In this document: one piece after another, positions 45,545 to 64,000 of the stretch
Numbering within the stretch: position 1 is the first letter of the stretch
Layout: each line of letters begins with the position of its first letter
Assembly (NCBI GenBank): GCA_048500355.1
Contig: JASNYD010000006.1
Coordinates: 224,211-288,210 of the forward strand
From: Kofleriaceae bacterium
GTDB taxonomy: Bacteria > Myxococcota_A > Polyangia > Haliangiales > Haliangiaceae
DNA: 64,000 nucleotides
Direction of reading: 5' to 3'
The notes under the pieces: model-generated
What the model saw: the letters and a program-made list of their open reading frames with translations, nothing else
Databases searched by the model: none
What the model was told of the DNA's origin: nothing
Translations under genes and position numbers: made by a program

Positions 45545-45554
45545 GGCGCGCGCC

Positions 45555-46439: not shown

Positions 46440-46446
46440 GGTCCTC

Positions 46447-47238
<792 letters not shown>

Positions 47239-48684: not shown

Positions 48685-50001
48685 ATGGGGCCCCCTCTGT
48701 CGCCACGCCCGCCCGCCGTCACCGCCGCGCTCGCCGTCGCCCTCGGGTTGACGCTCCTCGCCGACGCCGGCCTCGCCCGGGCCCAGCCCGCCGACGAGGA
48801 CGAGGCCTCGCCCGCCGATCTCGGCGAGCCCGACGCCGACCCCGGCGGCGACGCGGCCGGGGAGGACGAGGAGGTCGAGGCCGAGGAGATCGGCGGCCCC
48901 GAGATCGATCGCGGCGAGGGCGTGACCGAGGTCGGCTTCGCCGACGGCTTCTTCATCAAGGCCGCCGGCGGCAAGTACACGCTGCGCCTGAGCGGCGGCG
49001 TGCAGCCGGCCGCCACCCTGACCCGGACCACCGGCCCCAGGGACTGGACCGGCGCGTTCTCGGTCCGGCGCGCCCGCCTCGCCCTCGACGGCAACCTCCA
49101 CGGCAAGGCCCTGCGCTACGGCCTCCAGCTCGACGCCGGCGGCGGCGTGGTCTCGGCCCAGGATCTCTACCTCGACGTCGCGCTGGGCCAGCGGCTGTGG
49201 CTGCGCGCCGGCCAGTGGAAGCGGCCGTTCTCGCGCCAGCAGCTCACGCCCTATCAGCGCCTCGAGCTCGGCGAGCGCGCGATCACCGACGCCGTCTTCG
49301 GCGCCGGCCGCGATCTCGGCGTCGCCGTGCACAACGACCCCGGGCGCGCGTCCGGCCTGGAGTGGGCGGTGGGCGTGTTCAACGGCACCGGCGCGGCGCC
49401 GTGGCTCGGCGGCACGGTCGCGACCGATCCGGCGACCGGGGCCGGGACGATCACCGGCGGCGGCTTCACCAACGTCCCGCGCGAGCTGGCGCCGGCGGTG
49501 GTCGCGCGCGTCGGTCTCGCCGAGGGCGGCGACGGCTACAGCGAGGCCGACCTCGAGGGCGGGCCCCTGCGCTGGGGCGTCGCGGCCAGCGCCTGGCTCG
49601 AGGGCGACCTCGATCGCGACGACGCCTCGAGCCAGCGGGTCCAGCTCGACTACCACGTCAAGGTCGCCGGCTTCGCCTCCACCGGCGGCTTCTACGGCAT
49701 GACCCGCCAGACCGGCGCCCAGCCGTTCTCGACCCAGGAGCTGGCCGCGGTCGGCTTCCACCTCCAGGTCGGCTACCTGGTCGCGCCCCGGCTCCACCTC
49801 GCGGCCCGCTACGCGCTGATCGACGCTCGCCCGGCCGCCGGCGCCGCCGCCGCCGACCAGCACGAGCTCGCGCTCGGCGGCACGTACCACGGCCACGGCC
49901 ACCAGGCCAAGGTCACCGCCAGCGTCCGCCTCGTCAAGACCGGCGACGCCAGCCTGACCGACCTCGTGCTGTTCGAGCTGCTCGGCTTCGTCGGCTGGTA
50001 G
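48685..50001 (+). CDS. outer-membrane porin, putative phosphate-selective (OprO/OprP-like), paralog 2
   Basis: ~50% identical to the preceding gene over full length (shared GFFIK, WLRAGQWKRPFSRQ, WAVGVFNGTG, GFHLQ.GY, ARYAL.DAR, LELLGFVGW). Confidence 0.65.
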   Translation: MGPPLSPRPPAVTAALAVALGLTLLADAGLARAQPADEDEASPADLGEPDADPGGDAAGEDEEVEAEEIGGPEIDRGEGVTEVGFADGFFIKAAGGKYTLRLSGGVQPAATLTRTTGPRDWTGAFSVRRARLALDGNLHGKALRYGLQLDAGGGVVSAQDLYLDVALGQRLWLRAGQWKRPFSRQQLTPYQRLELGERAITDAVFGAGRDLGVAVHNDPGRASGLEWAVGVFNGTGAAPWLGGTVATDPATGAGTITGGGFTNVPRELAPAVVARVGLAEGGDGYSEADLEGGPLRWGVAASAWLEGDLDRDDASSQRVQLDYHVKVAGFASTGGFYGMTRQTGAQPFSTQELAAVGFHLQVGYLVAPRLHLAARYALIDARPAAGAAAADQHELALGGTYHGHGHQAKVTASVRLVKTGDASLTDLVLFELLGFVGW

Positions 50002-50026
50002 CCACGGCGCGGGCGGGGCGGGCCTC

Positions 50027-50050
50027 GCGCGCGTCCCATGGGACACGCGC
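50027..50050 (+). terminator. GC-rich hairpin after the porin pair (possible intrinsic terminator, no U-tract)
   Basis: GCGCGTCCC-ATG-GGGAC(A)CGCGC stem-loop ~25 nt after the stop of the second porin. Confidence 0.25.
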
Positions 50051-50152
50051 CGGGGCCGCGGCCGGCGGCGGCCGCCGCGCCAGGCGCTCCGCGAGGTTGC
50101 CGCGGGGCGGGGCCGGGGCCGACGTGGTCCCGGGCTTGCTCTGACCGGGCGC

Positions 50153-51631
50153 ATGAAGCCGTCATCCCCGCACCTCCCCCACCTGCTCGCGATCGCCCTC
50201 CCCTTGCTCGGCCTGGCCGCCGGCTGTCTCGGCGCCGAGGACGAGCTCCTCGCCGAGGACGACCTCGGCACCGAGGCGGCCGCCCTGGTCTCGCCCCAGG
50301 TCGCCGGCCTGTCCTCGAGCGGCGTCCCCGATCCCATGGCCGCGGTCGACGGCGACCTCGCCACCGGGACCACGGTCGACAGCGCGGTCGGCAACTGCCC
50401 GCTCTACAACAGCGGCCCGTTCATCAAGCTGAACGCCGGGCACTGCCTGTTCACCCCGACCGGCACGACCTTCTTCGGCTGGGCGATGGTCAAGCTGCGG
50501 GTCGGCAACGGCGGCGACGTCGATCTCGTCGAGCTGAGGCTGACCCACGATCGCACCGGCTCGACCGCGAGCCCCGCGCCCCAGACGCTGGTCTACACCT
50601 CGTGGGACGGCAAGGCCTTCAGCGCGCGGGGCGCCTTCACCGCGTCGACCACGCGGACGACCTCGACGATCCGCCTCGTGCCGCCGACCCGGCCCGCGCC
50701 CTACGTCTGGGTCGTCCTCGGCAAGTCGACGGTGTCGGCGGCGGCGCCGGCCGGGCCGACCCTGCGCTGGTTCGAGCTGGCGGCGACCCACCTCGCGCCG
50801 CCCGCCGGCCTGACCGCGCGCGCGGTGTCGGCGACCGCGATCGACCTGAGCTGGGCCGACACCTCGACCGCCGAGACCGGCTTCGAGGTCTTCGTGCAGC
50901 CGGCGGGCGGCGCCTGGCGCAGCCTCGGCCTCGATCCGGGCGGCGCCAACCAGACCTCCGAGCGCATCACCGGCCTCGCCCCCAGCACGACCTACGCCTT
51001 CCAGCTCCGCGCCCGCAGCGGCACGACCTCCTCGCGCCCCAGCAACACGGCGTCGGCGACGACGCCGGCCGGGCCGCCCGGGCGCCTCGCCCTCGTCAAC
51101 AACTCCCAGGTCGACGTCCTCCAGGTCCTGTTCGACGGCGTCGCCCGCGCGCCCAGCCAGGTCGTCGGCAACCAGGGCCTGTTCGACCTCCCGGCCGGCA
51201 CCTACCGCGTGGTCGCGGCGCTCGGCTTCGGCGCTGGCGCCGGCATCGCCGCCGGCGCCGGGGTGTGCGACGCGAGCTGGACCGTCACCGTGGCGTCGGG
51301 CCAGACGGCGACCCTGAGCGTGGCGCCGCTCACCGCCGGCCAGGTGCTCACCCACTGCGGCCCGGCGGCCGACTACGGTCAGGGCGGCTACACCGATTCG
51401 AGCGGCTACCACACGGTCGCGCTGCGCTTCCACGCCAGCGGCGCCTTCGACTACTGGCACGACGACGTCCGCCAGCCGTCGGGCACGATCACCAGCACCA
51501 CGTTCAACCCGCCGTGGCTGACCTTCACGCTCTCCACCGGCGACGTCCTCACGATGGGCTGGCCCTACGGCACCCTCGACGTCCGCGTCGGCACCGCGCC
51601 GGTCCGCCTCCTCCGCGCCACGCCGTGGTGA
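50153..51631 (+). CDS. lipoprotein with fibronectin type III domain (hypothetical)
   Basis: Lipobox LLGLAAGC; FN3-like segment (PPAGLTARAVSATAIDLSWADTSTAETGFEVFVQ...TTYAFQLRARS). Confidence 0.65.
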   Translation: MKPSSPHLPHLLAIALPLLGLAAGCLGAEDELLAEDDLGTEAAALVSPQVAGLSSSGVPDPMAAVDGDLATGTTVDSAVGNCPLYNSGPFIKLNAGHCLFTPTGTTFFGWAMVKLRVGNGGDVDLVELRLTHDRTGSTASPAPQTLVYTSWDGKAFSARGAFTASTTRTTSTIRLVPPTRPAPYVWVVLGKSTVSAAAPAGPTLRWFELAATHLAPPAGLTARAVSATAIDLSWADTSTAETGFEVFVQPAGGAWRSLGLDPGGANQTSERITGLAPSTTYAFQLRARSGTTSSRPSNTASATTPAGPPGRLALVNNSQVDVLQVLFDGVARAPSQVVGNQGLFDLPAGTYRVVAALGFGAGAGIAAGAGVCDASWTVTVASGQTATLSVAPLTAGQVLTHCGPAADYGQGGYTDSSGYHTVALRFHASGAFDYWHDDVRQPSGTITSTTFNPPWLTFTLSTGDVLTMGWPYGTLDVRVGTAPVRLLRATPW

Positions 51632-51737
51632 GCCGGTGGCTGCGTGGCCTGGGTGGAGCTGTCGCCAGGGTGACCTGCCCGATCCTGCCGGTACGGTCGA
51701 TGGCGGCGCGCGCATCCGATGCGCTAGGGTCAACGTC

Positions 51738-52190
51738 ATGTCGATGAACGGGGAGCTCCGCCTGATTCCGCCCGAGCTCATGGATCAGTTGGACGACGAG
51801 GATGTGGTCGACGGCCTGATGGATGGTGACGGGCTCTCCGTCGGCAAGGCGTGGAACGGCTTGCACTACCTCTATTGCGGCGACGGGACGGCGGGCGAGA
51901 GCGCGATCAGCGGTGGCATTCCCCTCGACCATGGCGACACCGGCTACGGGCCGCCGCAGTACCTGACGCCGGACGAGGTCGCGGCCTACGCGCGCGAGCT
52001 CGAAACGCTGACCGATGAGAGGCTCCGCGACGCATACGATGCGAAGGAGATGGAGCAGGAGAGCGTCTATCCGGGTGGCTGGGACGACCCGTCCAATCTG
52101 GAGTGGCTCCTCACAGAAGCGCGCAAGGTGCGCGAGTTCTATCGCGAGGCGTCGGCGAAGGGCGCGGGGGTATTGCAGTTCCTCGCGTAG
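51738..52190 (+). CDS. DUF1877 (YfbM-like) family protein
   Basis: 150 aa; resembles YfbM family (MSMNGELRLIPPELMDQL...LHYLY); noticeably lower GC than flanking genes. Confidence 0.65.
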   Translation: MSMNGELRLIPPELMDQLDDEDVVDGLMDGDGLSVGKAWNGLHYLYCGDGTAGESAISGGIPLDHGDTGYGPPQYLTPDEVAAYARELETLTDERLRDAYDAKEMEQESVYPGGWDDPSNLEWLLTEARKVREFYREASAKGAGVLQFLA

Positions 52191-52475
52191 TCGCTCTGCC
52201 TCGGCGAGAAGGTCGGGCTCCTCGCCGACGCGCGGCTCTGCCCCTGGACTGCGCCAAGTACCTCGCCGAGGAGGGCGACCGCCAGCACCTTCTTCGATCG
52301 TCGGGCGTGGCACGGGTCGTCCGTGTCGTCGCTTCGCGCCCGGTCGGCCTGGGGTGTCTGGTCCCCACGATGCCCTTCGTGTCACCCTGGTCGACGAAGC
52401 CGCGGGGATCACGCGGCCAGGCCCGCCGACAAGCCGCCGGCGACACCCCGGCGGGCGGGCGGATCGCGACACGGG

Positions 52476-53348
52476 CTACCCTTGCGCGTCCACGGCCTGC
52501 ACCGGAGCGCCGACGAGAATCGGTGCCATCAGGTCTTCCAGGCGCCGCCGCCGCTCTCCTGCGACGGGCGTCAGCGCCGTCTCGATCGACTCCGTCAGCT
52601 GGATGTACGTCAGCTCGCCCACCCGATCGACCCGGGCCGGCTCGACCTCCGCCTTGACGCGCGCCAGCCCGCCGATGGCCTCGAGGTGGCCGTCGTGGAG
52701 GTAGGTCCCCCAGCGCGGATGCCGGGCGTACCTGCGACCGATGAACTTGAACCACTCCGCGGCCAGGCTGGTCTGCTTCCGGAACCCTGCGGGCAGCCCG
52801 AGGTCGACGTCGCCCTGGGGCGTGTCGAGGATCAGGTTCATGAGCCACGTGTCGCAGATGGCCAGGTCGTACGTTGGCCACGCCCCGAGGATCGCGTGCA
52901 GCACACCCAGCTCCGTCACCAGCTCGTGCATCAGCTCGATCCAGGCAGCGAACGACTTGCCCGGCGGCAGCTCCGCCGATCGACACGTGACTCGCAGCTG
53001 GAAGGGCTCGTTCCATTCCTCTCGCGAGCGATCGAGGTTGAGCATGACCCTGGTGAAGTTCCCGTCCCCCCTCGCACGGTTCATGTAGAGGCGGCTCAGC
53101 TTGTCGGACCGCAGCCCCTCCAGGATCGGCGCCGAGCCATTCTTCCCTCCCACGCGGACCGACCTCCGGTCGTCTCGCTTGTGCAGCCCCGAGTACGACG
53201 CCCACCACGGGATCCATGGCCACCGCTTGTCGACCAGGAGGTCGGCGACGCGCTGCGCTCGGTCCGGGTCGACCCACACGGCCTTCTCGAAGAACGCCAC
53301 GAGACCGGCATGAGGAAACTGGCTGTTGATGCTCGGTTGCCGTGCCAC
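52476..53348 (-). CDS. Trp-rich 290-aa protein, tandem paralog 1 of 4 (putative immunity protein of the upstream secreted toxin-like protein)
   Basis: GTG start preceded by GGAGTAGGA; MARQPSINSQFPHAGLVAFFEKAVWVDPDRAQRVADLLVDKRWPWIPWWASYSG...; natural amino-acid composition, whereas all other frames are Arg/Pro/Gly junk; no signal peptide. Confidence 0.7.
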   Translation of the reverse strand: MARQPSINSQFPHAGLVAFFEKAVWVDPDRAQRVADLLVDKRWPWIPWWASYSGLHKRDDRRSVRVGGKNGSAPILEGLRSDKLSRLYMNRARGDGNFTRVMLNLDRSREEWNEPFQLRVTCRSAELPPGKSFAAWIELMHELVTELGVLHAILGAWPTYDLAICDTWLMNLILDTPQGDVDLGLPAGFRKQTSLAAEWFKFIGRRYARHPRWGTYLHDGHLEAIGGLARVKAEVEPARVDRVGELTYIQLTESIETALTPVAGERRRRLEDLMAPILVGAPVQAVDAQG

Positions 53349-53694
53349 GCGACATCCTACTCCGAGAGGTCGACCACGAGCGCTGTGTGAACCCCACCTG
53401 GCTGGTGACGCCGCGCTCGCCACGACCTCGCCATCACTGATCGCGACCAGCCGTTCGGGCTTGGATGTCGACGGAGGGGATGGCAGCTCGGATCGCGTCG
53501 CTCCAGGCCGAGATGGCGACCAGGGAGCGCGACGCCGTCGCGCGAACCTGGATCGCCCCGGTCGGCCTGGGGTGTCTGGTCCCCTCGATGCCCTTCGTGT
53601 CACCCTGGTCGACGAAGCCGCGGGGATCACGCGGCCCAGGCCCGCCGACAAGCCGCCGGCGACACCCCGGCGGGCGGGCGGATCGCGACACGGG

Positions 53695-54567
53695 CTACCC
53701 TTGCGCGTCCACGGCCTGCACCGGGGCGCCGACGAGAATCGGTGCCATCAGGTCTTCCAGGCGTCGCCGCCGCTCTCCTGCGACGGGCGTCAGCGCCGTC
53801 TCGATCGACTCCGTCAGCTGGATGTACGTCAGCTCGCCCACCCGATCGACCCGGGCCGGCTCGACCTCCGCCTTGACGCGCGCCAGCCCGCCGATGGCCT
53901 CGAGGTGGCCGTCGTGGAGGTAGGTCCCCCAGCGCGGATGCCGGGCGTACCTGCGACCGATGAACTTGAACCACTCCGCGGCCAGGCTGGTCTGCTTCCG
54001 GAACCCTGCGGGCAGCCCGAGGTCGACGTCGCCCTGGGGCGTGTCGAGGATCAGGTTCATGAGCCACGTGTCGCAGATGGCCAGGTCGTACGTTGGCCAC
54101 GCCCCGAGGATCGCGTGCAGCACACCCAGCTCCGTCACCAGCTCGTGCATCAGCTCGATCCAGGCAGCGAACGACTTGCCCGGCGGCAGCTCCGCCGATC
54201 GACACGTGACTCGCAGCTGGAAGGGCTCGTTCCATTCCTCTCGCGAGCGATCGAGGTTGAGCATGACCCTGGTGAAGTTCCCGTCCCCCCTCGCACGGTT
54301 CATGTAGAGGCGGCTCAGCTTGTCGGACCGCAGCCCCTCCAGGATCGGCGCCGAGCCATTCTTCCCTCCCACGCGGACCGACCTCCGGTCGTCTCGCTTG
54401 TGCAGCCCCGAGTACGACGCCCACCACGGGATCCATGGCCACCGCTTGTCGACCAGGAGGTCGGCGACGCGCTGCGCTCGGTCCGGGTCGACCCACACGG
54501 CCTTCTCGAAGAACGCCACGAGACCGGCATGAGGAAACTGGCTGTTGATGCTCGGTTGCCGTGCCAC
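53695..54567 (-). CDS. Trp-rich 290-aa protein, tandem paralog 2 of 4 (putative immunity protein)
   Basis: Identical or near-identical to paralog 1; same GTG/RBS context. Confidence 0.7.
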   Translation of the reverse strand: MARQPSINSQFPHAGLVAFFEKAVWVDPDRAQRVADLLVDKRWPWIPWWASYSGLHKRDDRRSVRVGGKNGSAPILEGLRSDKLSRLYMNRARGDGNFTRVMLNLDRSREEWNEPFQLRVTCRSAELPPGKSFAAWIELMHELVTELGVLHAILGAWPTYDLAICDTWLMNLILDTPQGDVDLGLPAGFRKQTSLAAEWFKFIGRRYARHPRWGTYLHDGHLEAIGGLARVKAEVEPARVDRVGELTYIQLTESIETALTPVAGERRRRLEDLMAPILVGAPVQAVDAQG

Positions 54568-54922
54568 GCGACATCCTACTCCGAGAGGTCGACCACGAGC
54601 GCTGTGTGAACCCCACCTGGCTGGTGACGCCGCGCTCGCCACGACCTCGCCATCACTGATCGCGACCAGCCGTTCGGGCTTGGATGTCGACGGAGGGGAT
54701 GGCAGCTCGGATCGCGTCGCTCCAGGCCGAGATGGCGACCAGGGCGGCCAACGGAGCGCGACGCCGTCGCGCGAACCTGGATCGCCCCGGTCGGCCTGGG
54801 GTGTCTGGTCCCCTCGATGCCCTTCGTGTCACCCTGGTCGACGAAGCCGCGGGGATCACGCGGCCAGGCCCGCCGACAAGCCGCCGGCGACACCCCGGCG
54901 GGCGGGCGGATCGCGACACGGG

Positions 54923-55795
54923 CTACCCTTGCGCGTCCACGGCCTGCACCGGAGCGCCGACGAGAATCGGTGCCATCAGGTCTTCCAGGCGCCGCCGCCG
55001 CTCTCCTGCGACGGGCGTCAGCGCCGTCTCGATCGACTCCGTCAGCTGGATGTACGTCAGCTCGCCCACCCGATCGACCCGGGCCGGCTCGACCTCCGCC
55101 TTGACGCGCGCCAGCCCGCCGATGGCCTCGAGGTGGCCGTCGTGGAGGTAGGTCCCCCAGCGCGGATGCCGGGCGTACCTGCGACCGATGAACTTGAACC
55201 ACTCCGCGGCCAGGCTGGTCTGCTTCCGGAACCCTGCGGGCAGCCCGAGGTCGACGTCGCCCTGGGGCGTGTCGAGGATCAGGTTCATGAGCCACGTGTC
55301 GCAGATGGCCAGGTCGTACGTTGGCCACGCCCCGAGGATCGCGTGCAGCACACCCAGCTCCGTCACCAGCTCGTGCATCAGCTCGATCCAGGCAGCGAAC
55401 GACTTGCCCGGCGGCAGCTCCGCCGATCGACACGTGACTCGCAGCTCGTACGGTTCGCTCCATTGCTCCTTCGTAGGATCGAGGTCGAGTGCGACCCTGG
55501 TGAAGTTCCCGTCCCCCCTCGCACGGTTCATGTAGAGGGTACCCATCTTGTCGGACCGCAGCCCCTCCAGGATCGGCGCCGAGCCATTCTTCCCTCCCAC
55601 GCGGACCGACCTCCGGTCGTCTCGCTTGTGCAGCCCCGAGTACGACGCCCACCACGGGATCCATGGCCACCGCTTGTCGACCAGGAGGTCGGCGACGCGC
55701 TGCGCTCGGTCCGGGTCGACCCACACGGCCTTCTCGAAGAACGCCACGAGACCGGCATGAGGAAACTGGCTGTTGATGCTCGGTTGCCGTGCCAC
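54923..55795 (-). CDS. Trp-rich 290-aa protein, tandem paralog 3 of 4 (mosaic variant; putative immunity protein)
   Basis: Same frame and length; central segment KMGTLYMNRARGDGNFTRVALDLDPTKEQWSEPYELRV differs from KLSRLYMNRARGDGNFTRVMLNLDRSREEWNEPFQLRV in the other copies. Confidence 0.7.
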   Translation of the reverse strand: MARQPSINSQFPHAGLVAFFEKAVWVDPDRAQRVADLLVDKRWPWIPWWASYSGLHKRDDRRSVRVGGKNGSAPILEGLRSDKMGTLYMNRARGDGNFTRVALDLDPTKEQWSEPYELRVTCRSAELPPGKSFAAWIELMHELVTELGVLHAILGAWPTYDLAICDTWLMNLILDTPQGDVDLGLPAGFRKQTSLAAEWFKFIGRRYARHPRWGTYLHDGHLEAIGGLARVKAEVEPARVDRVGELTYIQLTESIETALTPVAGERRRRLEDLMAPILVGAPVQAVDAQG

Positions 55796-56141
55796 GCGAC
55801 ATCCTACTCCGAGAGGTCGACCACGAGCGCTGTGTGAACCCCACCTGGCTGGTGACGCCGCGCTCGCCACGACCTCGCCATCACTGATCGCGACCAGCCG
55901 TTCGGGCTTGGATGTCGACGGAGGGGATGGCAGCTCGGATCGCGTCGCTCCAGGCCGAGATGGCGACCAGGGAGCGCGACGCCGTCGCGCGAACCTGGAT
56001 CGCCCCGGTCGGCCTGGGGTGTCTGGTCCCCTCGATGCCCTTCGTGTCACCCTGGTCGACGAAGCCGCGGGGATCACGCGGCCCAGGCCCGCCGACAAGC
56101 CGCCGGCGACACCCCGGCGGGCGGGCGGATCGCGACACGGG

Positions 56142-57014
56142 CTACCCTTGCGCGTCCACGGCCTGCACCGGGGCGCCGACGAGAATCGGTGCCATCAGGT
56201 CTTCCAGGCGTCGCCGCCGCTCTCCTGCGACGGGCGTCAGCGCCGTCTCGATCGACTCCGTCAGCTGGATGTACGTCAGCTCGCCCACCCGATCGACCCG
56301 GGCCGGCTCGACCTCCGCCTTGACGCGCGCCAGCCCGCCGATGGCCTCGAGGTGGCCGTCGTGGAGGTAGGTCCCCCAGCGCGGATGCCGGGCGTACCTG
56401 CGACCGATGAACTTGAACCACTTGGCCGCGAGGCTGGTCTGCTTCTGGAACCCTGCGGGCAGCCCGAGGTCGACGTCGCCCTGGGGCGTGTCGAGGATCA
56501 GGTTCATGAGCCACGTGTCGCAGATGGCCAGGTCGTACGTTGGCCACGCCCCGAGGATCGCGTGCAGCACACCCAGCTCCGTCACCAGCTCGTGCATCAG
56601 CTCGATCCAGGCAGCGAACGACTTGCCCGGCGGCAGCTCCGCCGATCGACACGTGACTCGCAGCTGGAAGGGCTCGTTCCATTCCTCTCGCGAGCGATCG
56701 AGGTTGAGCATGACGCTGGTGAAGTCGCCGTCCCCCCTCGCACGGTTCATGTCGAGGCGGCTCAGCTTGTCGGACCGCAGCCCCTCCAGGATCGGCGCCG
56801 AGCCATTCTTCCCTCCCACGCGGACCGACCTCCGGTCGTCTCGCTTGTGCAGCCCCGAGTACGACGCCCACCACGGGATCCATGGCCACCGCTTGTCGAC
56901 CAGGAGGTCGGCGACGCGCTGCGCCCGGTCCGGGTCGACCCACACGGCCTTCTCGAAGAACGCCACGAGACCGGCATGAGGAAACTGGCTGTTGATGCTC
57001 GGCTGCCGTGCCAC
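56142..57014 (-). CDS. Trp-rich 290-aa protein, tandem paralog 4 of 4 (putative immunity protein), translationally coupled to upstream gene
   Basis: GTG 8 nt after the TAG stop of the 734-aa gene, which fixes the start codon choice for all copies; a few substitutions (LSRLDM, GDFTSV, FQKQ, AAKWF). Confidence 0.7.
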   Translation of the reverse strand: MARQPSINSQFPHAGLVAFFEKAVWVDPDRAQRVADLLVDKRWPWIPWWASYSGLHKRDDRRSVRVGGKNGSAPILEGLRSDKLSRLDMNRARGDGDFTSVMLNLDRSREEWNEPFQLRVTCRSAELPPGKSFAAWIELMHELVTELGVLHAILGAWPTYDLAICDTWLMNLILDTPQGDVDLGLPAGFQKQTSLAAKWFKFIGRRYARHPRWGTYLHDGHLEAIGGLARVKAEVEPARVDRVGELTYIQLTESIETALTPVAGERRRRLEDLMAPILVGAPVQAVDAQG

Positions 57015-57022
57015 GCGAGATC

Positions 57023-59227
57023 CTACTCCGAGAGGTCGACCACGAAGTCCTTGAACAGCTTCCCCGCCGGCGGACAGTACTCGTAGACGCGCAGCTCCGG
57101 CTTGAGTTCGGCGGTCTGGCTGGCCTCGTCGAAGCAAGGGCGCAACACCTCGAGGTTGCCGGTCAGCTCGTCGCGCCTCTTCTTCCCGCGAAGTGCGTTC
57201 ACGATCTCCCGGATGCCGTCTTCGATCTGCACCTTCCCCAGCTTCCTGGCATCCTCGTTGTTCGGCTTGATCTCGACGACGTAGCAGACGTTCCCGTCCA
57301 CGCGGATGCAGTCGACACGGCGATTGCCATAGGTGAGCTCGCTCCTGGTGCACTTGCTCGAGTCGCCCTGGATGCGCCTGTGCTCCTGCTTGCCGACCTC
57401 GATCTGGGCTCGGACCTCCGGATCGTTGGCGCCGTTGAGCTCGTCGTTCAAGAGGCTCGCGAGGCTGCTGAGCCGACGCTTGACGCTGTCGCGCGCCTTG
57501 GTCGCAGCCTCGCGGATGTCATCGTCCTCGGCCTTCATGAGGCGCTCGGCGTGGCCGATGAGGGCCAGGCCGCTCGTGTTGATGTTCCCCCACTGGGGTC
57601 GGACGCGGTCGCGCATCCGGTCCGCGATCTCTCGTAGCTGCGCGGCGTGGGCGTCACCCTCCGCGTAGTCCCCGGGCGACTCGGGGATCGAGCAGAAGAG
57701 CTGCCGGACGTTCCGCGTGTCCTCGACGTACCAGCGACGGAGCTCCTTGATGCCATCGTCCCACCTCCGCAGCTCCGAGCGGAGCTGCGCCAGGTCGGCG
57801 GTGGCGCCCTTGAGCGCGGCCTGCAGCTGCTCGATCGCGGCCTTGGCGATCGGTCCGTCCTCGCCCATCGCGATCTTCTCGCAGTCCCGCTGCGCGATCT
57901 CGCGCGCCTTCTTCCAGTACTCGAAGGTGCTCTCGGCGGCGGTGCGGTACTTCCCGGTGAGGCTCGACCACTGTCCTTCGGAAGGTGCGAACCGCTGGGT
58001 CTCCGAGCGCGCACGCTCCATCGTCGCATGCTGCTCGTTGGTCTTCGCCAGGCCCGCGATGATCGGCTGAGCAAGAGACTTCGCTTGCAGCTTGATGTGC
58101 TCGATGCCCTTGGTGTCGTTCTTCTCGACGTAGCGGCGAACCAGGTCGGAGAGTCGCTGCGATGCCTCCTGACAGCGCTTGGGGGCGTTGTCGGCGAGGA
58201 ACTGGGCCTCCTTGAGCACGCGGAGCGGCTTCAGGGCCTCCCGCGCGGCGCGGACGTTGTTGCGCCACACCTCGAGCCGGCGCTTGGCCTCCCCGTCGTT
58301 GCCCTTGACGCGGTCGAGCTGTTCGAGGAGGCGGTCGATCTCGTTCAGCTTGCCGTCCGCCCGGGCGATGTCGGAGGCGTCGCTGTCGCCCGCGAGACCA
58401 TCGAGGCTCGACGCCATCTCGCCGAGCTGGCGGTCGAGCTGCTCGTAGACCATCTCGATGCCCCTCTTGCCCTCGTAGAGCTTCCTCATCGCATCCTCGA
58501 CCAGCGGGTTGCGCTCCTCCCGGGCGAGGTTGCCGCAGACGTCGTCGCGCTTCACCTGCTCCGACTGCTTGACGGTGTGCTCGTACATCGTGCGGGCAGA
58601 GGTGACGAGGTTGTTGCGGACGTCGCTCCACCTACCATCGCTGTACGAGAAGTCGTCGGCGCGATCGTACCAGGTGTACATCTCGTTCTTGGTCCGCTCG
58701 GCCTGCTCCATCGCCTCCTTGCCCACTCGGCCAAACTCGCGCGCGAGCTTGGGCACCTCGTCGACGCCGCGCGGGTCCGGACTGTCGGTGTAGGTCTTCA
58801 TCCGCGAGGTCAGCTCGCGCACCGCCTGCTCGCACTTCCTGGGCCACTCATCGACCTTGCGGTGGCCGTTCTTGAGCTCGCGCAGGTAGCCAGCGGCGTC
58901 CTTGTAGCGGCTGGCGATGTCCGGGTAGGACTCGCCCATGCGGCGGGCGTCGGAGTCGTCGTCGGCCTGGTTCTTGAGGTCGCGTGCCTTCTCGGAGACA
59001 CGCCCGGCGTAGTCGATGGTGCGGTCGAGGTCCGACGTGCTCGAGTCACCGGGCACGTCGCGCAGCTCGCTGGCGATATCGGAGAGCAGACGCTCGATCT
59101 CCTCGCGGAGCTGGCGGCGCTTCGACTCATCGGCCCGGACCGGGCCTCCGGACGCCAGCGCCACTACGCCGAGAGCCAAGGCGGCGAGCTGGATGCGGTG
59201 CACACCGCGCTGCTGTCTCTTCGTCAT
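57023..59227 (-). CDS. Sec-secreted 734-aa coiled-coil protein with C-terminal PD-(D/E)xK-like nuclease motif (putative polymorphic toxin / bacteriocin-like effector)
   Basis: ATG 59227 with GGAGG 7 nt upstream; signal peptide MTKRQQRGVHRIQLAALALGVVALASGGPVRA; ~600 aa of charged heptad-like helical sequence; C-terminal ~100 aa with RVDCIRVDGNVCYVVEIKPNN (D...EIK); lower GC than the genome. Confidence 0.75.
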   Translation of the reverse strand: MTKRQQRGVHRIQLAALALGVVALASGGPVRADESKRRQLREEIERLLSDIASELRDVPGDSSTSDLDRTIDYAGRVSEKARDLKNQADDDSDARRMGESYPDIASRYKDAAGYLRELKNGHRKVDEWPRKCEQAVRELTSRMKTYTDSPDPRGVDEVPKLAREFGRVGKEAMEQAERTKNEMYTWYDRADDFSYSDGRWSDVRNNLVTSARTMYEHTVKQSEQVKRDDVCGNLAREERNPLVEDAMRKLYEGKRGIEMVYEQLDRQLGEMASSLDGLAGDSDASDIARADGKLNEIDRLLEQLDRVKGNDGEAKRRLEVWRNNVRAAREALKPLRVLKEAQFLADNAPKRCQEASQRLSDLVRRYVEKNDTKGIEHIKLQAKSLAQPIIAGLAKTNEQHATMERARSETQRFAPSEGQWSSLTGKYRTAAESTFEYWKKAREIAQRDCEKIAMGEDGPIAKAAIEQLQAALKGATADLAQLRSELRRWDDGIKELRRWYVEDTRNVRQLFCSIPESPGDYAEGDAHAAQLREIADRMRDRVRPQWGNINTSGLALIGHAERLMKAEDDDIREAATKARDSVKRRLSSLASLLNDELNGANDPEVRAQIEVGKQEHRRIQGDSSKCTRSELTYGNRRVDCIRVDGNVCYVVEIKPNNEDARKLGKVQIEDGIREIVNALRGKKRRDELTGNLEVLRPCFDEASQTAELKPELRVYEYCPPAGKLFKDFVVDLSE

Positions 59228-59267
59228 CTGGAACCTCCACGCCTCGGTCGAGTAGAAGCACCGCAGC

Positions 59268-59340
59268 TTCTGGTCACTTTATCGCCGAGTTCGACATCTT
59301 GGTCAATCGCCATGACGGCGGTTTGACCGCGTCTGTGACC
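59268..59340 (-). promoter_or_regulatory. nested inverted repeats in the promoter region of the toxin-like operon (possible operator)
   Basis: CTGGTCAC...TTGGTCAA-N16-TTGACC...GTGACC, 40-110 nt upstream of ATG 59227 on the minus strand, in a low-GC noncoding stretch. Confidence 0.25.
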
Positions 59341-59871
59341 TCCTCATTCCGCGGACGAACTTTGCCACCCTGCATGCGCGGGCAAGGTGTCAGAGTCGAG
59401 GGCTATCGCGGCGAGGCGACCGTGCGGAATCTCGATCGCCATCGTGTCGTGGGTGTTCGTCGCCTCGGCGTGCATGGTGTCCTCGACGGGGTTCACGTCG
59501 ACGGACGACGAGCCCGATCGGTTCGTCTGATTCACCGGCCGTCGTTTGGTGTGATGTTCATGAGGCCCGGGCTCACGCACGAGACTACTCGCGAGCTGCC
59601 GCTGGCCGTATGATCAATCCCAGGATCGCCATTGACAGCCCGGTCTGCGAGGTGTCGGTGACGCGGAATCTGGGCCAGCCGGCGGGGACCGAAGGGCCTG
59701 CCCGTGGCGCTGCCGGCGCTGCCCCGCGCCCGCCGCACCACCGACACCGGGCTCGCGCCGGGCCTTGGGCCCACAATTGTCGTCGGTGGGCGACCTTCGC
59801 TGACGAAGAAAGATAGACCGACGCCGGGGCGGAGGCGTCGACAGGGGCACCAACACCTGGAGGCCCCGTCC

Positions 59872-61626
59872 ATGCTGCGTCGACCGATCGCCCGGTTCCT
59901 GTCCCGCTCGCTCCTCATGATGTCGCTGGCCCAGCTCGCCGTGGGCTGTAACCAGCGCGCCGCCGATCGCGCCGGCGCCATCGGCCGCGCCAGCGACACC
60001 GGCGGCACCGCCGCCGGCACCGGGGTCCCCGGTGACACCACGACCGCGGTGGTCGTCGACTCCACCGCGTCCGACCGGCCCGCGGAGGAGCGCCGCAAGG
60101 CCGAGGCCAGCCAGACCACCGCCCCGCACGCGGCGCCGACCGGCGCCACCGGCGTGGGGGCCGGCGGCGCCGCCACCGGAGGCGCGCTCGCGGCGGCGCC
60201 CATGTACCGCGGCGGCAAGGGCCGCGGCGCGCCGGCCGCCGACGGTCAGTCGGGCGAGGGCTACAAGCACTACGGCGCCAACGCCTGGACCGACACCACC
60301 CGCGACCACCTGTCGACCTTCGCCGCCGACGTCGACACCGCCAGCTACACGATCGCCCGCCGCAAGCTGACCGAGGGCAGCCTGCCGCCCGCCGCCGCGG
60401 TCCGGGTCGAGGAGTTCGTCAACTACTTCCGCTACGGCTACCCGGCGCCGACCGGCGGCCAGCCCTTCGCCGTGCACCTGGACGCCGCGCCGTCGCCGTT
60501 CAACCCCGGCCGCCACGTCCTGCGGGTCGGCGTCACCACCCGGACCAAGAGCATCGCCGAGCGCAAGAAGGCCAACCTGGTCTTCCTGGTCGATGTCTCG
60601 GGCTCGATGCACGCGCCCGACAAGCTCGAGCTGGCCAAGCGCTCGCTGCGCATCCTGGTCGACAACCTCAAGGACGGCGACACCGTCGCGCTCGTGACCT
60701 ACGCCGGCTCGACCCGGGTGGTGCTGCCGGCCACCGGCCTCGAGCACAAGGGCCGCATCGTCAGCGCGATCGAGGACCTGACCGCCGGCGGCTCGACCGC
60801 GATGGGCTCGGGCCTCGAGCTGGCCTACCAGGAGGCGATGAAGGGCCTGGGCCCCGACGCCGAGAGCCGCGTGCTGGTGCTGTCCGACGGCGACGCCAAC
60901 GTCGGCGCGACCTCGCACCGCGAGCTCCTCGACCGCATCGCCGGCAAGGTCAAGGAGGGGGTGACCCTGTCGACGATCGGCTTCGGCATGGGCAACTACA
61001 AGGACGAGATGATGGAGCAGCTCGCCAACAAGGGGAACGGCAACAACTACTACATCGACGGCCTGTCGCAGGCGAAGCGGGTCTTCGCCGAGCAGCTCGG
61101 CTCGACGCTCGAGGTCGTGGCCCAGGACGTCAAGCTCCAGGTCGACTTCGATCCCGGCCAGGTCGCGCGCTACCGCCTGGTCGGCTACGAGAACCGCGAC
61201 ATCGCCGACGACAGCTTCCGCGACGACAAGGTCGACGCCGGCGAGATCGGCGCCGGCCACCAGGTGACCGCGCTCTACGAGCTCGAGCTGACCCGCGACG
61301 CCGACAAGCGGCGGCCGCTGGTCACCGTCCGCGTCCGCCACAAGGCGCCCAAGGGCACCCGCGCCGAGGAGGCGGCCTTCGCCTTCGCCCCCGCCAGCCT
61401 CGCCCCGAGCTTCGCCGCCGCCTCCGCCGACCTCCGCTTCGCGTTCGCCACCGCCGCCTTCGCCGACGTCCTGCGCGGCGCCGAGGACGCCGAGCACTGG
61501 AGCCTGGCCGAGATCGGCAAGCTGGCCGCCGCCGCCGCCGGCGACGACGCCGACCGCAAGGAGCTGGTGAGCCTGGTCGAGCGGGCGCGCGCCCTGCGCG
61601 GCGGCCAGGCGACCCTGGCGAGGTAG
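59872..61626 (+). CDS. von Willebrand factor type A domain lipoprotein (YfbK-like vWA/DUF3520 family)
   Basis: Lipobox LAVGCNQ; MIDAS motif DVSGSM...S..T; YfbK-like N-terminal region (VDTASYTI, VRVEEFVNYF). Confidence 0.8.
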   Translation: MLRRPIARFLSRSLLMMSLAQLAVGCNQRAADRAGAIGRASDTGGTAAGTGVPGDTTTAVVVDSTASDRPAEERRKAEASQTTAPHAAPTGATGVGAGGAATGGALAAAPMYRGGKGRGAPAADGQSGEGYKHYGANAWTDTTRDHLSTFAADVDTASYTIARRKLTEGSLPPAAAVRVEEFVNYFRYGYPAPTGGQPFAVHLDAAPSPFNPGRHVLRVGVTTRTKSIAERKKANLVFLVDVSGSMHAPDKLELAKRSLRILVDNLKDGDTVALVTYAGSTRVVLPATGLEHKGRIVSAIEDLTAGGSTAMGSGLELAYQEAMKGLGPDAESRVLVLSDGDANVGATSHRELLDRIAGKVKEGVTLSTIGFGMGNYKDEMMEQLANKGNGNNYYIDGLSQAKRVFAEQLGSTLEVVAQDVKLQVDFDPGQVARYRLVGYENRDIADDSFRDDKVDAGEIGAGHQVTALYELELTRDADKRRPLVTVRVRHKAPKGTRAEEAAFAFAPASLAPSFAAASADLRFAFATAAFADVLRGAEDAEHWSLAEIGKLAAAAAGDDADRKELVSLVERARALRGGQATLAR

Positions 61627-61674
61627 GCGTCCTGCCCCCGCGCCGGCGGCGCCCGCGCGGGGTATGCTCGGCCC

Positions 61675-62838
61675 ATGCGAGCGACTCCCGCGCTCCTCGC
61701 CGCCTGCGTCGCCGCCTGCGGCTTCGACCCGGTGGGAGGCGGCGACGACGACGGCGGCCCCGGCGACGCCCGCGACGCCCCCGGCGACGACGACGCCGAC
61801 CCCGGCGACGGCCCGCCCGCGGTCGACGCCACCGACGGCATGACGGTGGACGCGCGGCCGTCGCGCAAGCGACGCCTCACGATCGACGGCGCCCTCGTCC
61901 TCGGCAACCACACCGACTTCCCGCTGTGGGTCGAGGTCGTCGACCCCGCCGGCCTCGGCGCGCGGGCCCAGGCCGACGGCAGCGACATCTACTTCACGAC
62001 CCCGGGCGGCGTCGTCCTCGTCCACGAGCTGCAGCGCTACGTCAGCGCCGAGGGCCGGCTCGAGGCGTGGGTCAAGCTGCCGACCCTGACCGCGGGGGCG
62101 GCGGCGGCGATCGACCTCCACTACGGCGACCCGGCGCTGGCGCCCGCGCCCACGCCGACCGCGGTGTGGAGCAACGCCTTCCACGCCGTATGGCACCTCG
62201 ACGCCGCGTCGCCGGCCACCCAGCCCGACGCCACCGGCATGCGTAACGCCACCGCCAGCGGCGGGATGAGCGCGACCGACGTCGTCGCCGGCCGGCTGGG
62301 CCGCGGCCTGCGCTTCGACGGCGACGACGATCAGCTCGCGTTCACCAGCGGCTTCCTCGGCGCCGGCCCCCATACGATCTCGGCCTGGGTCGACCAGCGC
62401 GCCACCACCAACAACGACGCCCTGGTCGTCCTCGGCGACCCCGCCTGCTTCCAGTCGCGCTGGCTGCACACCCGGTTCGATCAGGGCACGATCGCCAGCG
62501 GCTTCTACTGCAGCGACTGGCCGAACTCGACCGTGGACATCCAGGGCGACGGCTGGGTGCTGCTGCACTGGGTCTACGACGGCAACACCTCCGGCGCGCT
62601 GTTCGTCGATGGCGTGCGCGTCGCCGGTCCGTTCACGTACCCCAGCGCGGCGGTCACGGTGGGCACCGACGGCTACATCGGGAACGCGCCGTCCGGGTTC
62701 GGCCAGAACATGGGCCTGAACGCGACGCTCGACGAGGTGCGCCTCGCGCGCGCCGCGCGGTCGGCGGGGTGGATCGCGACCGAGTACGCCAACCAGAGCT
62801 CGCCGGCCACCTTCTACACCCTCGGCCCCGAGGAGTAG
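61675..62838 (+). CDS. DUF2341 + LamG (concanavalin-A-like lectin) domain lipoprotein
   Basis: Lipobox VAACGFD; DUF2341 signature (RRLTIDGALVLGNHTDFPLWVEV...IYFT); LamG-like C-terminus (LDEVRLA). Confidence 0.75.
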   Translation: MRATPALLAACVAACGFDPVGGGDDDGGPGDARDAPGDDDADPGDGPPAVDATDGMTVDARPSRKRRLTIDGALVLGNHTDFPLWVEVVDPAGLGARAQADGSDIYFTTPGGVVLVHELQRYVSAEGRLEAWVKLPTLTAGAAAAIDLHYGDPALAPAPTPTAVWSNAFHAVWHLDAASPATQPDATGMRNATASGGMSATDVVAGRLGRGLRFDGDDDQLAFTSGFLGAGPHTISAWVDQRATTNNDALVVLGDPACFQSRWLHTRFDQGTIASGFYCSDWPNSTVDIQGDGWVLLHWVYDGNTSGALFVDGVRVAGPFTYPSAAVTVGTDGYIGNAPSGFGQNMGLNATLDEVRLARAARSAGWIATEYANQSSPATFYTLGPEE

Positions 62839-62844
62839 GCGGGC

Positions 62845-64000
62845 TCACGGGGCGCGGCGGCGCAAGCCGACGCCCAGGGCGAGGGCGAGCGCGACCCAGG
62901 CGGCGGCCAGGGGCACGGCGATGGCGGCGGCGGCGATCCCGGCCACGGCCAGGCCGCGGAAGAGCCAGGCCGAGGCGAAGTCGCCGAAGCGGTAGACCAG
63001 GGTGTCGATCAGGTTCTTGGCCTTGTACTTGTCCTCGCGCGAGACGGCGGTGAACAGGAGCTCGCGCGCCGGCCGGGACAGGGCGTGGGTCGCGGCGCGG
63101 CTGCCCGCCGACACCGCGGTCGCCACGCCCAGGGTCGGCGACGCCCCGAGGGCCAGCGCGCCCGCGCCCTGGGCCACGGGCAGGATCGCCAGCACCACGC
63201 CGGCGCCGAGCCAGCGCAGGAGCCGCGCGGTGAGGAGGCCCTGGATCAGGATCGTCGCCGCCCCGGTCCACAGCTCGACCTCGGCGAAGAACGCGGTGCG
63301 GGCCGCGCGGTCGGGGAGCGCCGCCTTCACGATCTCGGCCTGGCGCAGGTAGACGAACGTGGCGAGGCAGGCCGCGCACAGGGCGTAGGCGGCGATGCCG
63401 AGCAGGTAGGGCGAGCGGGCGACGCCGGCGAACCCGCCCAGGGCGTGGCCGCCGACCGGCGCGTCCTCCACCGCCGGCGCCGCCGGCGCCGCCGACGCGG
63501 CCGGAGCGGCCGACGACAGGCGGCGCGCCGCGCGGTCGAGCGCGCGCGCGCTCCACACCGCGGCCTCGAGCGTGAGCGCGCCCAGCACCAGGAGCGCCGC
63601 CGGCTCGACGTGCTCGACGAGCAGCCGGGTCAGCGCCGGCCCGGCCAGCGCCCCGGCGGTGCCGCCGGCGGCGATGGGGCCGAACAGGCGCCGCCCCTGC
63701 TCGGGGCGGGAGAGGTCGGCGCACAGGCTCCAGAACACCGACACCACGAACAGGTTGAAGACCGACAGCCAGACGTAGAAGACGCGGCCGACCGCGACCG
63801 GCGCCACCTCGCGCTCGACGAGCAACGCGAACCCCAGGAGCTGGAGCGCGAAGGCGCGGTAGACCAGCGGCACGAAGCGCCCCCGCGGCAGCCGCGCCAC
63901 CAGCGCCCCCCACGGCGGCGCGACGGCGATCATCACGATGAAGGTCGCGGTGAACAGCCACGGGATGAACGCCGGGTCGCCGTCGAGGACCAGGGCGTCG
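62845..64000 (-). CDS. MFS/TLC-like polytopic membrane transporter (C-terminal part; gene starts beyond window end)
   Basis: Frame is open to nt 64000 (DALVLDGDPAFIPWLFTATFIVMIAV...); >=10 TM segments; stop at 62845. Confidence 0.6.
   Translation of the reverse strand, partial: DALVLDGDPAFIPWLFTATFIVMIAVAPPWGALVARLPRGRFVPLVYRAFALQLLGFALLVEREVAPVAVGRVFYVWLSVFNLFVVSVFWSLCADLSRPEQGRRLFGPIAAGGTAGALAGPALTRLLVEHVEPAALLVLGALTLEAAVWSARALDRAARRLSSAAPAASAAPAAPAVEDAPVGGHALGGFAGVARSPYLLGIAAYALCAACLATFVYLRQAEIVKAALPDRAARTAFFAEVELWTGAATILIQGLLTARLLRWLGAGVVLAILPVAQGAGALALGASPTLGVATAVSAGSRAATHALSRPARELLFTAVSREDKYKAKNLIDTLVYRFGDFASAWLFRGLAVAGIAAAAIAVPLAAAWVALALALGVGLRRRAP

Follow-up and report, generated by a model that had tools for sequence, protein, structure and literature searches.

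A probable strain-variable toxin-immunity island between porin and vWA genes in an uncultured Kofleriaceae bacterium

What is the origin of a toxin-immunity cassette whose base composition departs from that of its surroundings, and what might such a cassette do? The question is raised by a 64,000-nucleotide (64-kb) stretch of a Kofleriaceae bacterium genome (positions 224,211 to 288,210 of contig JASNYD010000006.1, GenBank assembly GCA_048500355.1), here called the window, in whose coordinates all positions are given. An initial annotation, made from the sequence alone, placed a compositional island at 51,640-59,900 containing an array of immunity genes, a toxin gene and the leader upstream of it, regarded it as consistent with horizontal acquisition, and suggested that the cassette may have inserted between a conserved pair of genes, a DUF1877 (YfbM-like) gene and a YfbK-like vWA gene. 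The island spans ~8.0 kb (~51,650-59,692) and quite probably represents a strain-variable, bacteriocin-like antibacterial module, located in a plastic slot between the pstSCAB and porin O/P genes on one side and the vWA gene on the other. In kind this is a known system, a secreted nuclease toxin with an immunity gene on a variable island. The case is built on what sequence and comparison show, namely the gene order, the repeats, the composition, the break in synteny, the pairing of the toxin with its partner, a sequence motif and the predicted folds.

The composition of the stretch is distinct by several measures. The guanine-plus-cytosine (GC) content at 51,640-59,900 is 0.683 compared to 0.751 in the rest of the 64-kb window, which makes this the lowest of all 8.26-kb windows; the next non-overlapping one, at 42-50 kb, has a GC content of 0.721. 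In 1-kb steps the GC content falls from 0.73-0.80 outside to 0.67-0.70 across 52-60 kb, in a window that is ~74% GC overall. The GC content at third codon positions (GC3) was determined for genes called from the GC3 frame pattern, with starts fixed by hand, and composition was compared within the 64-kb window only rather than against the whole genome. GC3 stands at 0.918 in the toxin gene, 0.880-0.897 across the four immunity copies and 0.868 in the DUF1877 gene, compared to a mean of 0.970 (standard deviation 0.019, minimum 0.907) for the remaining 33 genes of the window. The corresponding z-scores of the island genes against these 33 range from -2.8 to -5.5, with the DUF1877 gene the lowest at -5.5. 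Pooled third positions (one immunity copy counted) are 0.9065 GC in the island and 0.9728 in the other genes (chi-square 151, p=9e-35), and four-fold degenerate sites are 0.900 GC compared to 0.978 elsewhere. The sliding-window check of GC and GC3 that was suggested with the island claim has been run, and the claim holds: the island is the lowest-GC segment of its size, and its GC3 (0.87-0.92 vs 0.970±0.019) lies far outside chance within the window. Cassettes related to this one also have a lower GC3 than their flanks in L006, L099, L102 and L097 (comparison loci are cited by L numbers throughout). The leader of the toxin operon, given as 59,228-59,870 in the initial annotation, was said to be richer in AT, and this is also the case, with a GC content of 0.637 at 59,228-59,703.

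The codons that distinguish the island are AGG, GAA, CAT, TAT, ATT, AAT and TTG, which are 4- to 18-fold enriched there (AGG 11% vs 0.7% in the rest, GAA 8% vs 0.9%, CAT 24% vs 2%, TAT 12% vs 3%, TTG 5% vs 0.8%). The initial statement that third positions often use A or T, with TAT, TTG and AAG among the examples, was correct as to the enrichment of TAT and TTG; AAG and TTG, however, end in G. Furthermore, AAG is the sole Lys codon throughout the window, and it is conspicuous in the island only because Lys is 3x commoner there. GC3 accounts for only part of the drop in GC, from ~22% in the toxin gene to 38% in the immunity and DUF1877 genes, and the remainder, in the first and second codon positions, arises because K, E, D and N are abundant in the island proteins while A, G and P are scarce. 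A low-GC stretch at 43-48 kb (0.70) was considered as a second island and rejected, since it corresponds to pstSCAB, where a GC3 of 0.97-0.99 indicates that the low GC content reflects amino acid composition and not an island.

Comparison with relatives bears on how the island came to this site. Genomes searched with the vWA protein yielded 80 loci. The best match, in a conspecific metagenome-assembled genome (MAG), PRO4 (L009), is 97.8% identical in nucleotide sequence over 59,693-64,000 and has no match to the left of 59,693. Upstream of this junction, L009:1-7830 encodes a DUF6531 protein, a 1,049-amino-acid RHS-repeat protein with a C-terminal extension, a 202-amino-acid product of a downstream gene and an IstB_IS21 fragment, and GC3 in this L009 island is 0.72-0.90 compared to 0.98-1.00 in the shared genes. 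Consequently, two conspecific genomes carry different toxin islands at one junction. In L011-L014, where the vWA protein is 67-80% identical, pstSCAB is followed by one Porin_O_P gene and then directly by the vWA gene, and there is no fn3, DUF1877, toxin or immunity gene at the locus. The slot in L010 holds two other genes with native GC3. In MAG_26 the porin-vWA slot is empty (L012), and toxin/DUF1877 cassettes with an IS66 element are found on a separate contig (L097:1-16355, JAIOII010000822). This multi-cassette island contains a pair of toxin genes whose identity to the window toxin is 28% and 48%, a gene for a ~186-amino-acid PASTA-like protein before each toxin gene, two DUF1877 genes and IS66 (TnpB and a DDE transposase).

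Toxin-immunity cassettes are also found in unrelated contexts in L004, L006, L007, L097, L099 and L102, where the flanks include pirin and thymidine kinase (L004), a GGDEF gene (L006), DUF2254 and a protein kinase (L007), and ddl-murB-murC (L102). Insertion sequence (IS) elements near related islands are seen in other genomes only (IS21 in L009, IS66 in L097). The synteny comparison proposed with the initial annotation has now been made, and the orthologous loci in L009 and L011-L014 do not carry the cassette. Taken together, the break in synteny, the scattered contexts and the composition point to horizontal acquisition or turnover in a plastic slot, which supports the earlier proposal of horizontal acquisition in this wider form: the cassette is not at the locus in relatives and lies elsewhere in other genomes. 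Insertion probably occurred by homologous or illegitimate recombination. The arrangement of the island and its flanks is as follows.

43,581-47,238, plus strand: pstS-pstC-pstA-pstB-like phosphate ABC transporter genes; flanking core genes outside the island, GC3 0.97-0.99
47,322-48,620, plus strand: Porin_O_P gene A (PF07396, E=1e-17); ortholog of the single porin gene that abuts the vWA gene in relatives
48,685-50,001, plus strand: Porin_O_P gene B (Pfam E=3e-9, GC3 0.975); a paralog, not at this position in relatives
50,153-51,631, plus strand: gene for a secreted fn3-domain protein (Pfam fn3 E=3e-10, GC3 0.980); left flank of the island
51,650-51,737, plus strand: conserved region upstream of the DUF1877 gene, taken as the left island edge (blastn matches to L097, L098 and L099-L101)
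51,738-52,190, plus strand: DUF1877/YfbM-family gene, 150 amino acids (PF08974); convergent with the immunity array
52,336-52,475, minus strand: partial fifth spacer of ~140 nucleotides (nt), 3' of copy 4, with a relic of a toxin motif at 52,366-52,404
52,476-53,348, minus strand: immunity copy 4, 290 amino acids; same protein as copy 3
53,349-53,694, minus strand: spacer 3-4, 346 nt; same sequence as spacer 1-2, with toxin relics and a ribosome-binding site (RBS)
53,695-54,567, minus strand: immunity copy 3 (from the repeat alignment)
54,568-54,922, minus strand: spacer 2-3, 355 nt; 9 nt longer through a 10-nt insertion and a 1-nt deletion
54,923-55,795, minus strand: immunity copy 2, mosaic variant; private differences confined to codons 84-117
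55,796-56,141, minus strand: spacer 1-2, 346 nt (from the repeat alignment)
56,142-57,014, minus strand: immunity copy 1, toxin-adjacent, GTG start
57,023-59,227, minus strand: toxin gene, 734 amino acids; Sec-type signal peptide, helical region and predicted Tox-REase-9-like C-terminus
59,228-59,692, minus strand: leader/promoter region of the toxin gene and right island edge, GC ~0.64; homology to L009 starts only at 59,693
59,872-61,626, plus strand: YfbK-like vWA lipoprotein gene (Pfam vWF_A, VWA, YfbK_C); core gene, right flank

The right edge had been placed at 59,900 and is corrected to 59,692/59,693, as 59,693-59,871 is the conserved region upstream of the vWA gene; within it, 59,768-59,871 shares homology with the ~140-nt sequence between the porin and vWA genes of L013. 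On the left, ~90 nt upstream of the DUF1877 gene are conserved among cassettes (73-80% identity to the counterparts), and this similarity begins at ~51,650, 19 nt past the fn3 stop codon, placing the left edge near 51,650.

The toxin is encoded by a 734-amino-acid open reading frame (ORF) on the minus strand (59,227→57,023). Of its 47 homologues, nearly all have a length of 715-735 amino acids and a full-length identity of 37-67%; where a source is named, it is a MAG of Kofleriaceae, Haliangiaceae or Myxococcales, and the majority carry a precomputed PF15650 match. The N-terminus (MTKRQQRGVHRIQLAALALGVVALASGGPVRA|DE), read by eye from the sequence, has the features of a Sec-like signal peptide without a lipobox, and is followed by a helical region of ~590 amino acids and a putative nuclease domain at residues ~600-734. 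The residues G612, H616, D639, E652, K654, P655 and Y715 and ten Cys are invariant in 41 full-length homologues. The signature of Tox-REase-9 consists of GxxxH, E, D, ELKP and YxxE (Zhang et al. 2012, PMC3482391). G612xxxH616, D639 and E652-I-K654-P655 of the window toxin fit this signature, and the final YxxE reads YEYC, a partial match. Furthermore, the homologue P0021 (55% identical) passes the PF15650 threshold (31.6 vs 27.3 bits), and relatives at 24-28% identity (L097a, L099, L102) retain a signal-like N-terminus and D…E-x-K-P.

The AlphaFold model of the toxin (predicted local distance difference test, pLDDT, 88) consists of helices between residues 34 and 621 and continues into a beta-beta-beta-alpha-beta core with a pLDDT of ~90, made up of strands 628-633, 636-644 and 647-655, helix 658-679 and strand 708-715. 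In this model D639 is located on strand 2, and E652 and K654 are located on strand 3. Motif and model together support the assignment of the C-terminal domain as a Tox-REase-9-like PD-(D/E)xK nuclease, with the activity predicted on the same basis.

Immunity copy 1 is a 290-amino-acid ORF (57,014→56,142) that begins 8 nt past the toxin gene; its GTG start codon comes 6 nt after an AGGA, which in turn overlaps the stop codon of the toxin gene. The protein has no signal peptide and is cytoplasmic in the proposed model. An immunity gene lies directly downstream of the toxin gene in every locus examined, and the same gene is the partner of the toxin gene elsewhere at 72% (L004), 40% (L006) and 47% (L007) identity (tblastn). 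No Pfam match to the immunity protein was obtained even at E<=10, and a sequence-profile search of the PDB with the immunity alignment gave nothing useful. The AlphaFold model (pLDDT 93; predicted template modelling score, pTM, 0.90) was more informative. A Foldseek search with it matched PA0821 (7drg; E=8e-9, template modelling (TM) score 0.60/0.50) and the uncharacterised BPSL2088 (4rho; E=3e-5), as well as, more weakly, the Imm52 entries 6jdp (TsiT) and 9owg (probability 0.80-0.85, TM 0.38-0.48). PA0821 confers immunity to the VRR-Nuc effector TseV, and PD-(D/E)xK nucleases of the VRR-Nuc type are neutralised by DUF3396 proteins (PMC9635880, PMC10281587). A profile of 53 members of the immunity family retrieved no more than 170 cluster representatives from 1.84 billion proteins; four distant relatives recovered with the profile match PF11876 (TsiV) at 18.7-26.5 bits against a cut-off of 25, which only P0271 passes. 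The structural match and these transitive profile matches support a link of the immunity protein to the TsiV/DUF3396 family. The labels toxin and immunity given in the initial annotation are consequently supported, as predictions, by the motif, the predicted folds and the conserved pairing.

The immunity gene is present in four tandem copies, with start-to-start periods of 1,219, 1,228 and 1,219 bp and spacers of 346, 355 and 346 nt. Since spacers 1-2 and 3-4 are identical and the 3' ends of the copies pair as 1 with 3 and 2 with 4, the array is best described as a duplicated two-unit block. Three protein variants are encoded: copies 3 and 4 are the same, copy 1 has five private amino acid changes, and copy 2 is distinct. 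The 21 private nucleotide differences of copy 2 (12 amino acid changes, few of the differences synonymous) all fall in nt 250-349, equivalent to codons 84-117 (55,447-55,546 in the window), and outside this tract copy 2 does not differ from copies 3 and 4. The tract looks like the product of gene conversion from a diverged allele; it lies in the most variable segment of the family, possibly a surface that determines specificity.

Every spacer terminates in a copy of the final 23-31 nt of the toxin gene (…VVDLSE*, RBS included). In addition, a 38-39-nt relic of the toxin motif RGFVDxxDTKGI is found at 52,366-52,404, 53,584-53,622, 54,813-54,851 and 56,031-56,069. Over 38 nt the relic is 87% identical to the toxin gene of L004 compared to 79% to the resident toxin gene, which hints that an earlier, different toxin copy once lay downstream of the immunity gene. 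The 346-nt spacers were also considered as decayed toxin genes, and this was rejected because a toxin origin is demonstrable only for the 38-nt motif and the final 23-31 nt; an 82-amino-acid blastx alignment (28% identity, E=0.2) is too weak for any further claim. An older, diverged array of the same family is found on a separate metagenome contig (L105:1-2604), where the 3' end of a toxin gene (…FRDFVVP*) is followed by three immunity paralogues, 77-80% identical, with 33-nt gaps, so that immunity arrays recur in this toxin family. For the window, the near-identical copies suggest that the immunity gene was amplified recently.

The helical region of the toxin seems to be internally repeated, as Cys…(D/T)xxG(I/V)E…W recurs ~220 residues apart (toxin residues ~130-200 and ~350-420) and the anchors C132/W200 and C352/W420 do not vary. 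In toxin homologues, the spacer relic can be aligned to each of the two repeat positions.

The third component of the island is the DUF1877 gene, which matches PF08974 with 101 bits against a cut-off of 22 (E=1e-28, model positions 1-162 of 163). It had been described as a flank of the island, and this was not sustained, as the gene has the lowest GC3 and travels with toxin cassettes. Homologues 65-91% identical are found in four other assemblies, in L097 (twice), L098, L099-L101 and L102, one to two genes downstream of a toxin gene of the same family and on the same strand, with one of six contexts having no toxin gene; in the window, the DUF1877 gene is inverted relative to the toxin gene. 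The cassettes in L004, L006 and L007 have no DUF1877 gene. None of the 80 vWA loci carries a DUF1877 gene within 10 kb (tblastn E<=1e-8, >=80 amino acids aligned), which refutes the suggestion that the cassette inserted between a conserved DUF1877-vWA pair. The statement behind that suggestion is itself accurate, in that yfbK, yfbL and yfbM adjoin in E. coli K-12, but it does not carry over here; the gene conserved beside vWA is the one for a phosphate-selective porin, which lies downstream of pstSCAB (L011-L014). The low GC3, the homologues beside toxin genes and their absence near vWA genes together indicate that the DUF1877 gene is island cargo and not a flank. The DUF1877 proteins keep 65-91% identity while the accompanying toxins share 24-62% and the intervening genes are often unrelated, so the DUF1877 protein does not co-diversify with the toxin and behaves as a conserved accessory rather than a specific immunity protein. 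DUF1877/YfbM is a widespread family with a solved structure and, to our knowledge, no known function, and a search for literature on DUF1877/YfbM together with immunity found nothing relevant.

The soundness of the assembly matters for an array of near-identical repeats. Exact matches to the immunity and DUF1877 proteins lie on a 665-kb NCBI MAG contig of an uncultured Kofleriaceae bacterium (Myxococcota), and identical segments are found in several ENA and Logan metagenome assemblies. The 46-kb contig L001 matches the window at 100% identity from the vWA gene across the leader and the toxin gene into the start of copy 1; the 98-kb contig L089 carries pstSCAB, both porin genes, the fn3 gene, the DUF1877 gene and the end of an immunity copy; and L094 runs from the fn3 and DUF1877 genes through a gene of the copy-2 type, differing at 1 nt, and a spacer into the following copy. 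L001-L003 open with sequence of the copy-1 type, and all of the short-read contigs break inside the repeat. Since both the junctions and the variants are found in independent assemblies, several copies and at least two variants are real.

Several findings weigh against reading this locus as a horizontally exchanged nuclease module. The toxin remains below the PF15650 gathering threshold of 27.3 bits, with 14.2 bits for the full length and 17.9 bits (E=0.0038) for the C-terminal 159 amino acids, and Pfam and NCBIfam scans at default thresholds gave no match for the toxin or the immunity proteins. A Foldseek search of the PDB with the whole toxin model returned generic helical bundles only, all with E>0.1; as the helical region has no significant structural match, a role for it in delivery is a guess. 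Hallmarks of mobility are missing, with no tRNA within the window, no boundary direct repeat of >=20 nt, and no integrase or transposase in a Pfam scan of 37 window ORFs, which included every gene at 47.3-62.8 kb and left out about five window ORFs, all outside the island; the initial annotation had likewise seen no integrase, tRNA or direct-repeat boundary in the window. The left boundary is not set by comparison because the conspecific L009 contig begins inside its own island. The porin B and fn3 genes (48,685-51,631) have a native GC3 of 0.975-0.98 yet are missing at the locus in all relatives examined, suggesting that the slot may have been filled in several steps. The L004 cassette has a GC3 equal to that of its host, so low GC3 is not universal for the cassette family. 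Finally, the copy number of four is presumed, as it is read from this assembly alone.

It is improbable that the genes are simply old and native, their low GC and GC3 stemming from amino acid composition and from weak codon selection or weak biased gene conversion in rarely expressed accessory genes. Such an origin would fit the 62%-78% of the GC drop that falls in codon positions 1 and 2, the host-like GC3 of the L004 cassette and the one native window gene with a GC3 of only 0.907. The four-fold degenerate sites differ as well, however (0.900 vs 0.978), and pstSCAB, with an equally low total GC, keeps a GC3 of 0.97-0.99. Nor would old native genes be expected to be missing at the junction in conspecific L009, to leave porin and vWA genes adjacent in four relatives, or to recur as a cassette at unrelated loci, once beside IS66. 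That an artefact produced the locus, through a chimeric MAG join or an over-expanded repeat, is scarcely credible. The window does derive from a MAG and short-read assemblies are unable to cross the repeat, but both junctions are present in independent assemblies (L001, L089), L094 links the fn3 gene to two copies, and private substitutions between copies recur in other samples; a chimeric join in particular is very unlikely. There is likewise little chance that the island is ancestral at the site and was lost or replaced in relatives, L009 included, the slot being a recombination hot spot with turnover. The contents of the slot do differ in nearly every genome (empty in L011-L014, two genes with native GC3 in L010, the Rhs island in L009, porin B, fn3 and the island here), and there is no insertion scar. 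The deviant GC3 argues against long residence, and the near-identical immunity copies are recent. Moreover, this explanation overlaps with the preferred one, since turnover is still horizontal exchange, and the two differ only in polarity.

If the locus is a strain-variable island with an antibacterial module, the following mechanism can be proposed. The 734-amino-acid toxin would be exported via Sec and disulfide-bonded outside the cytoplasm, as suggested by the signal peptide and the ten invariant Cys. The long helical region may then function in release, in receptor binding or in entry into the target cell, and the C-terminal PD-(D/E)xK domain (D639, E652-x-K654) would cut nucleic acid in the target cytoplasm. 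The cytoplasmic 290-amino-acid TsiV-like protein would bind the nuclease domain and shield the producer and its kin from incoming toxin. Four immunity copies, in a two-unit superstructure of 1,219 + 1,228 bp, could provide a higher dose, while copy 2, as a mosaic, and copy 1, as a variant, may widen protection against variant toxins of neighbours. The DUF1877 protein would be a conserved accessory that moves with the cassettes and not the specific immunity protein. The island itself would have arrived, or replaced earlier content, by recombination and not through an integrase of its own.

Among known systems, the Tox-REase-9 polymorphic toxins (PF15650; PMC3482391) are similar in the signature GxxxH...D...E[LI]KP and in the immunity gene directly downstream, and export of the window toxin by a signal peptide corresponds to the type II secretion system ('T2SS') class in the same paper. 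In contrast, the window toxin scores 14-18 bits against the Pfam cut-off of 27.3. The listed immunity partner of Tox-REase-9 is Imm54 (PMC3482391), whereas the partner in the window is TsiV/DUF3396-like. The carrier architectures given for Tox-REase-9 are RHS, HINT and LxG in Actinobacteria, Firmicutes, gamma-proteobacteria, Bacteroidetes and Chlamydiae (PMC3482391), whereas the carrier in the window is unique and all-helical, ~590 amino acids long and found in Myxococcota. Furthermore, the window family diverges over the whole protein and does not have a variable tip on a constant stem. The strict test for polymorphic toxins, a constant N-terminus with interchangeable C-termini, was negative, as all 41 of 41 full-length homologues keep the same nuclease motif; with a tip that is constant across the family, this is not a polymorphic toxin in the strict sense.

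The effector-immunity pairs TseV/TsiV (VRR-Nuc, DUF3396) and TseT/TsiT (Tox-REase-5, Imm52) of T6SSs (type VI secretion systems) likewise combine a PD-(D/E)xK toxin with an alpha+beta immunity protein. The window differs in having a Sec signal and no PAAR, VgrG, Hcp, Rhs carrier or nearby T6SS genes, in a nuclease that is REase-9-like and not VRR-Nuc or REase-5, and in an immunity protein that has no direct Pfam match. Nuclease colicins and S-type pyocins have an elongated helical region for receptor binding and translocation, and their immunity is strain-specific. The likeness to these is functional and is proposed for a diffusible toxin with a helical region, a C-terminal nuclease and a linked downstream immunity gene. 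Colicins, however, have no signal peptide and depend on lysis proteins, their nucleases are HNH enzymes or specific RNases, and their immunity proteins are ~85 amino acids long. The window toxin has a signal peptide, and no structural similarity was detected for its helical region. Finally, the orphan toxin-tip/immunity arrays that follow cdiA and rhs share the tandem immunity genes and the short toxin relics in spacers, but the copies in the window are 94-100% identical paralogues and not different families with displaced tips, and there are no intact orphan toxin domains in the window.

A low-GC island with a toxin-immunity cassette is in itself routine. The architecture, however, is not described in the sources searched: a REase-9-like domain on a novel helical carrier, in a host from the Myxococcota, with a TsiV-like partner in place of Imm54 and a recurrent DUF1877 gene. 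The undescribed element is the combination of a Sec signal, a long helical region and a REase-9-like nuclease with a TsiV-like partner in uncultured Kofleriaceae. Alternative toxin islands in one porin-vWA slot of conspecific strains are the pattern expected of kin-discrimination loci in social or predatory myxobacteria. DUF1877/YfbM gains a reproducible and testable genomic association, and the fresh immunity array with its mosaic copy offers a clean example of dosage and diversification under way. Two more far-reaching readings, which are put forward jointly, are tentative and on balance doubtful: that DUF1877 is a functional third component of the Sec-exported helical nuclease toxins of Kofleriaceae, and that the ~590-amino-acid, Cys-rich helical region represents a new kind of module by which myxobacteria deliver diffusible nuclease toxins. 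On the former, DUF1877 keeps 65-91% identity where the toxin falls to 24-62% and unrelated genes stand in place of the immunity gene; DUF1877 could be a broad-spectrum protective factor or a factor in maturation or release.

The pstSCAB and vWA genes on either side of the island are core genes. On L089, an identical contig, the pstSCAB products match PBP_like_2, BPD_transp_1 (twice) and ABC_tran in Pfam, and the operon is syntenic in L010, L012, L014 and L015. The porins of L011-L014 are 59-63% identical to porin A compared to 50-53% to porin B. The fn3 gene has no tblastn match in the 80 vWA loci. The vWA gene likely starts at ATG 59,872 (MLRRPIARF...LAVGC), encodes 584 amino acids as called on L001, and has a GC3 of 0.97. 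A Kofleriaceae MAG carries a distant toxin homologue (24-30%) ~2.5 kb upstream of a vWA paralogue (L060:268-2308), which may be a coincidence or a second case of a toxin-vWA neighbourhood.

The regulatory sequences at the right edge offer a few further observations. A scan of the island for promoters found no promoter-like sites, and terminator-like sites occur at the level of shuffled sequence. The PASTA-like lipoprotein gene that precedes the toxin gene in L097 and L004 was sought and is missing from the window leader, where the only similarity is that to L004, at 59,402-59,496 (73% over 103 nt to L004 9,761-9,863, upstream of the L004 toxin gene; blastn). The leader-like region in L004 overlaps the 5' end of the divergent PASTA-like lipoprotein gene there, and the similarity may represent a shared regulatory region or a gene relic. 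At 59,790-59,815, upstream of the vWA gene, a short motif around CTGACGAAGA is kept in L011 and, more loosely, in L013; as pst and porin genes lie alongside, the motif could serve in regulation, for instance in response to phosphate.

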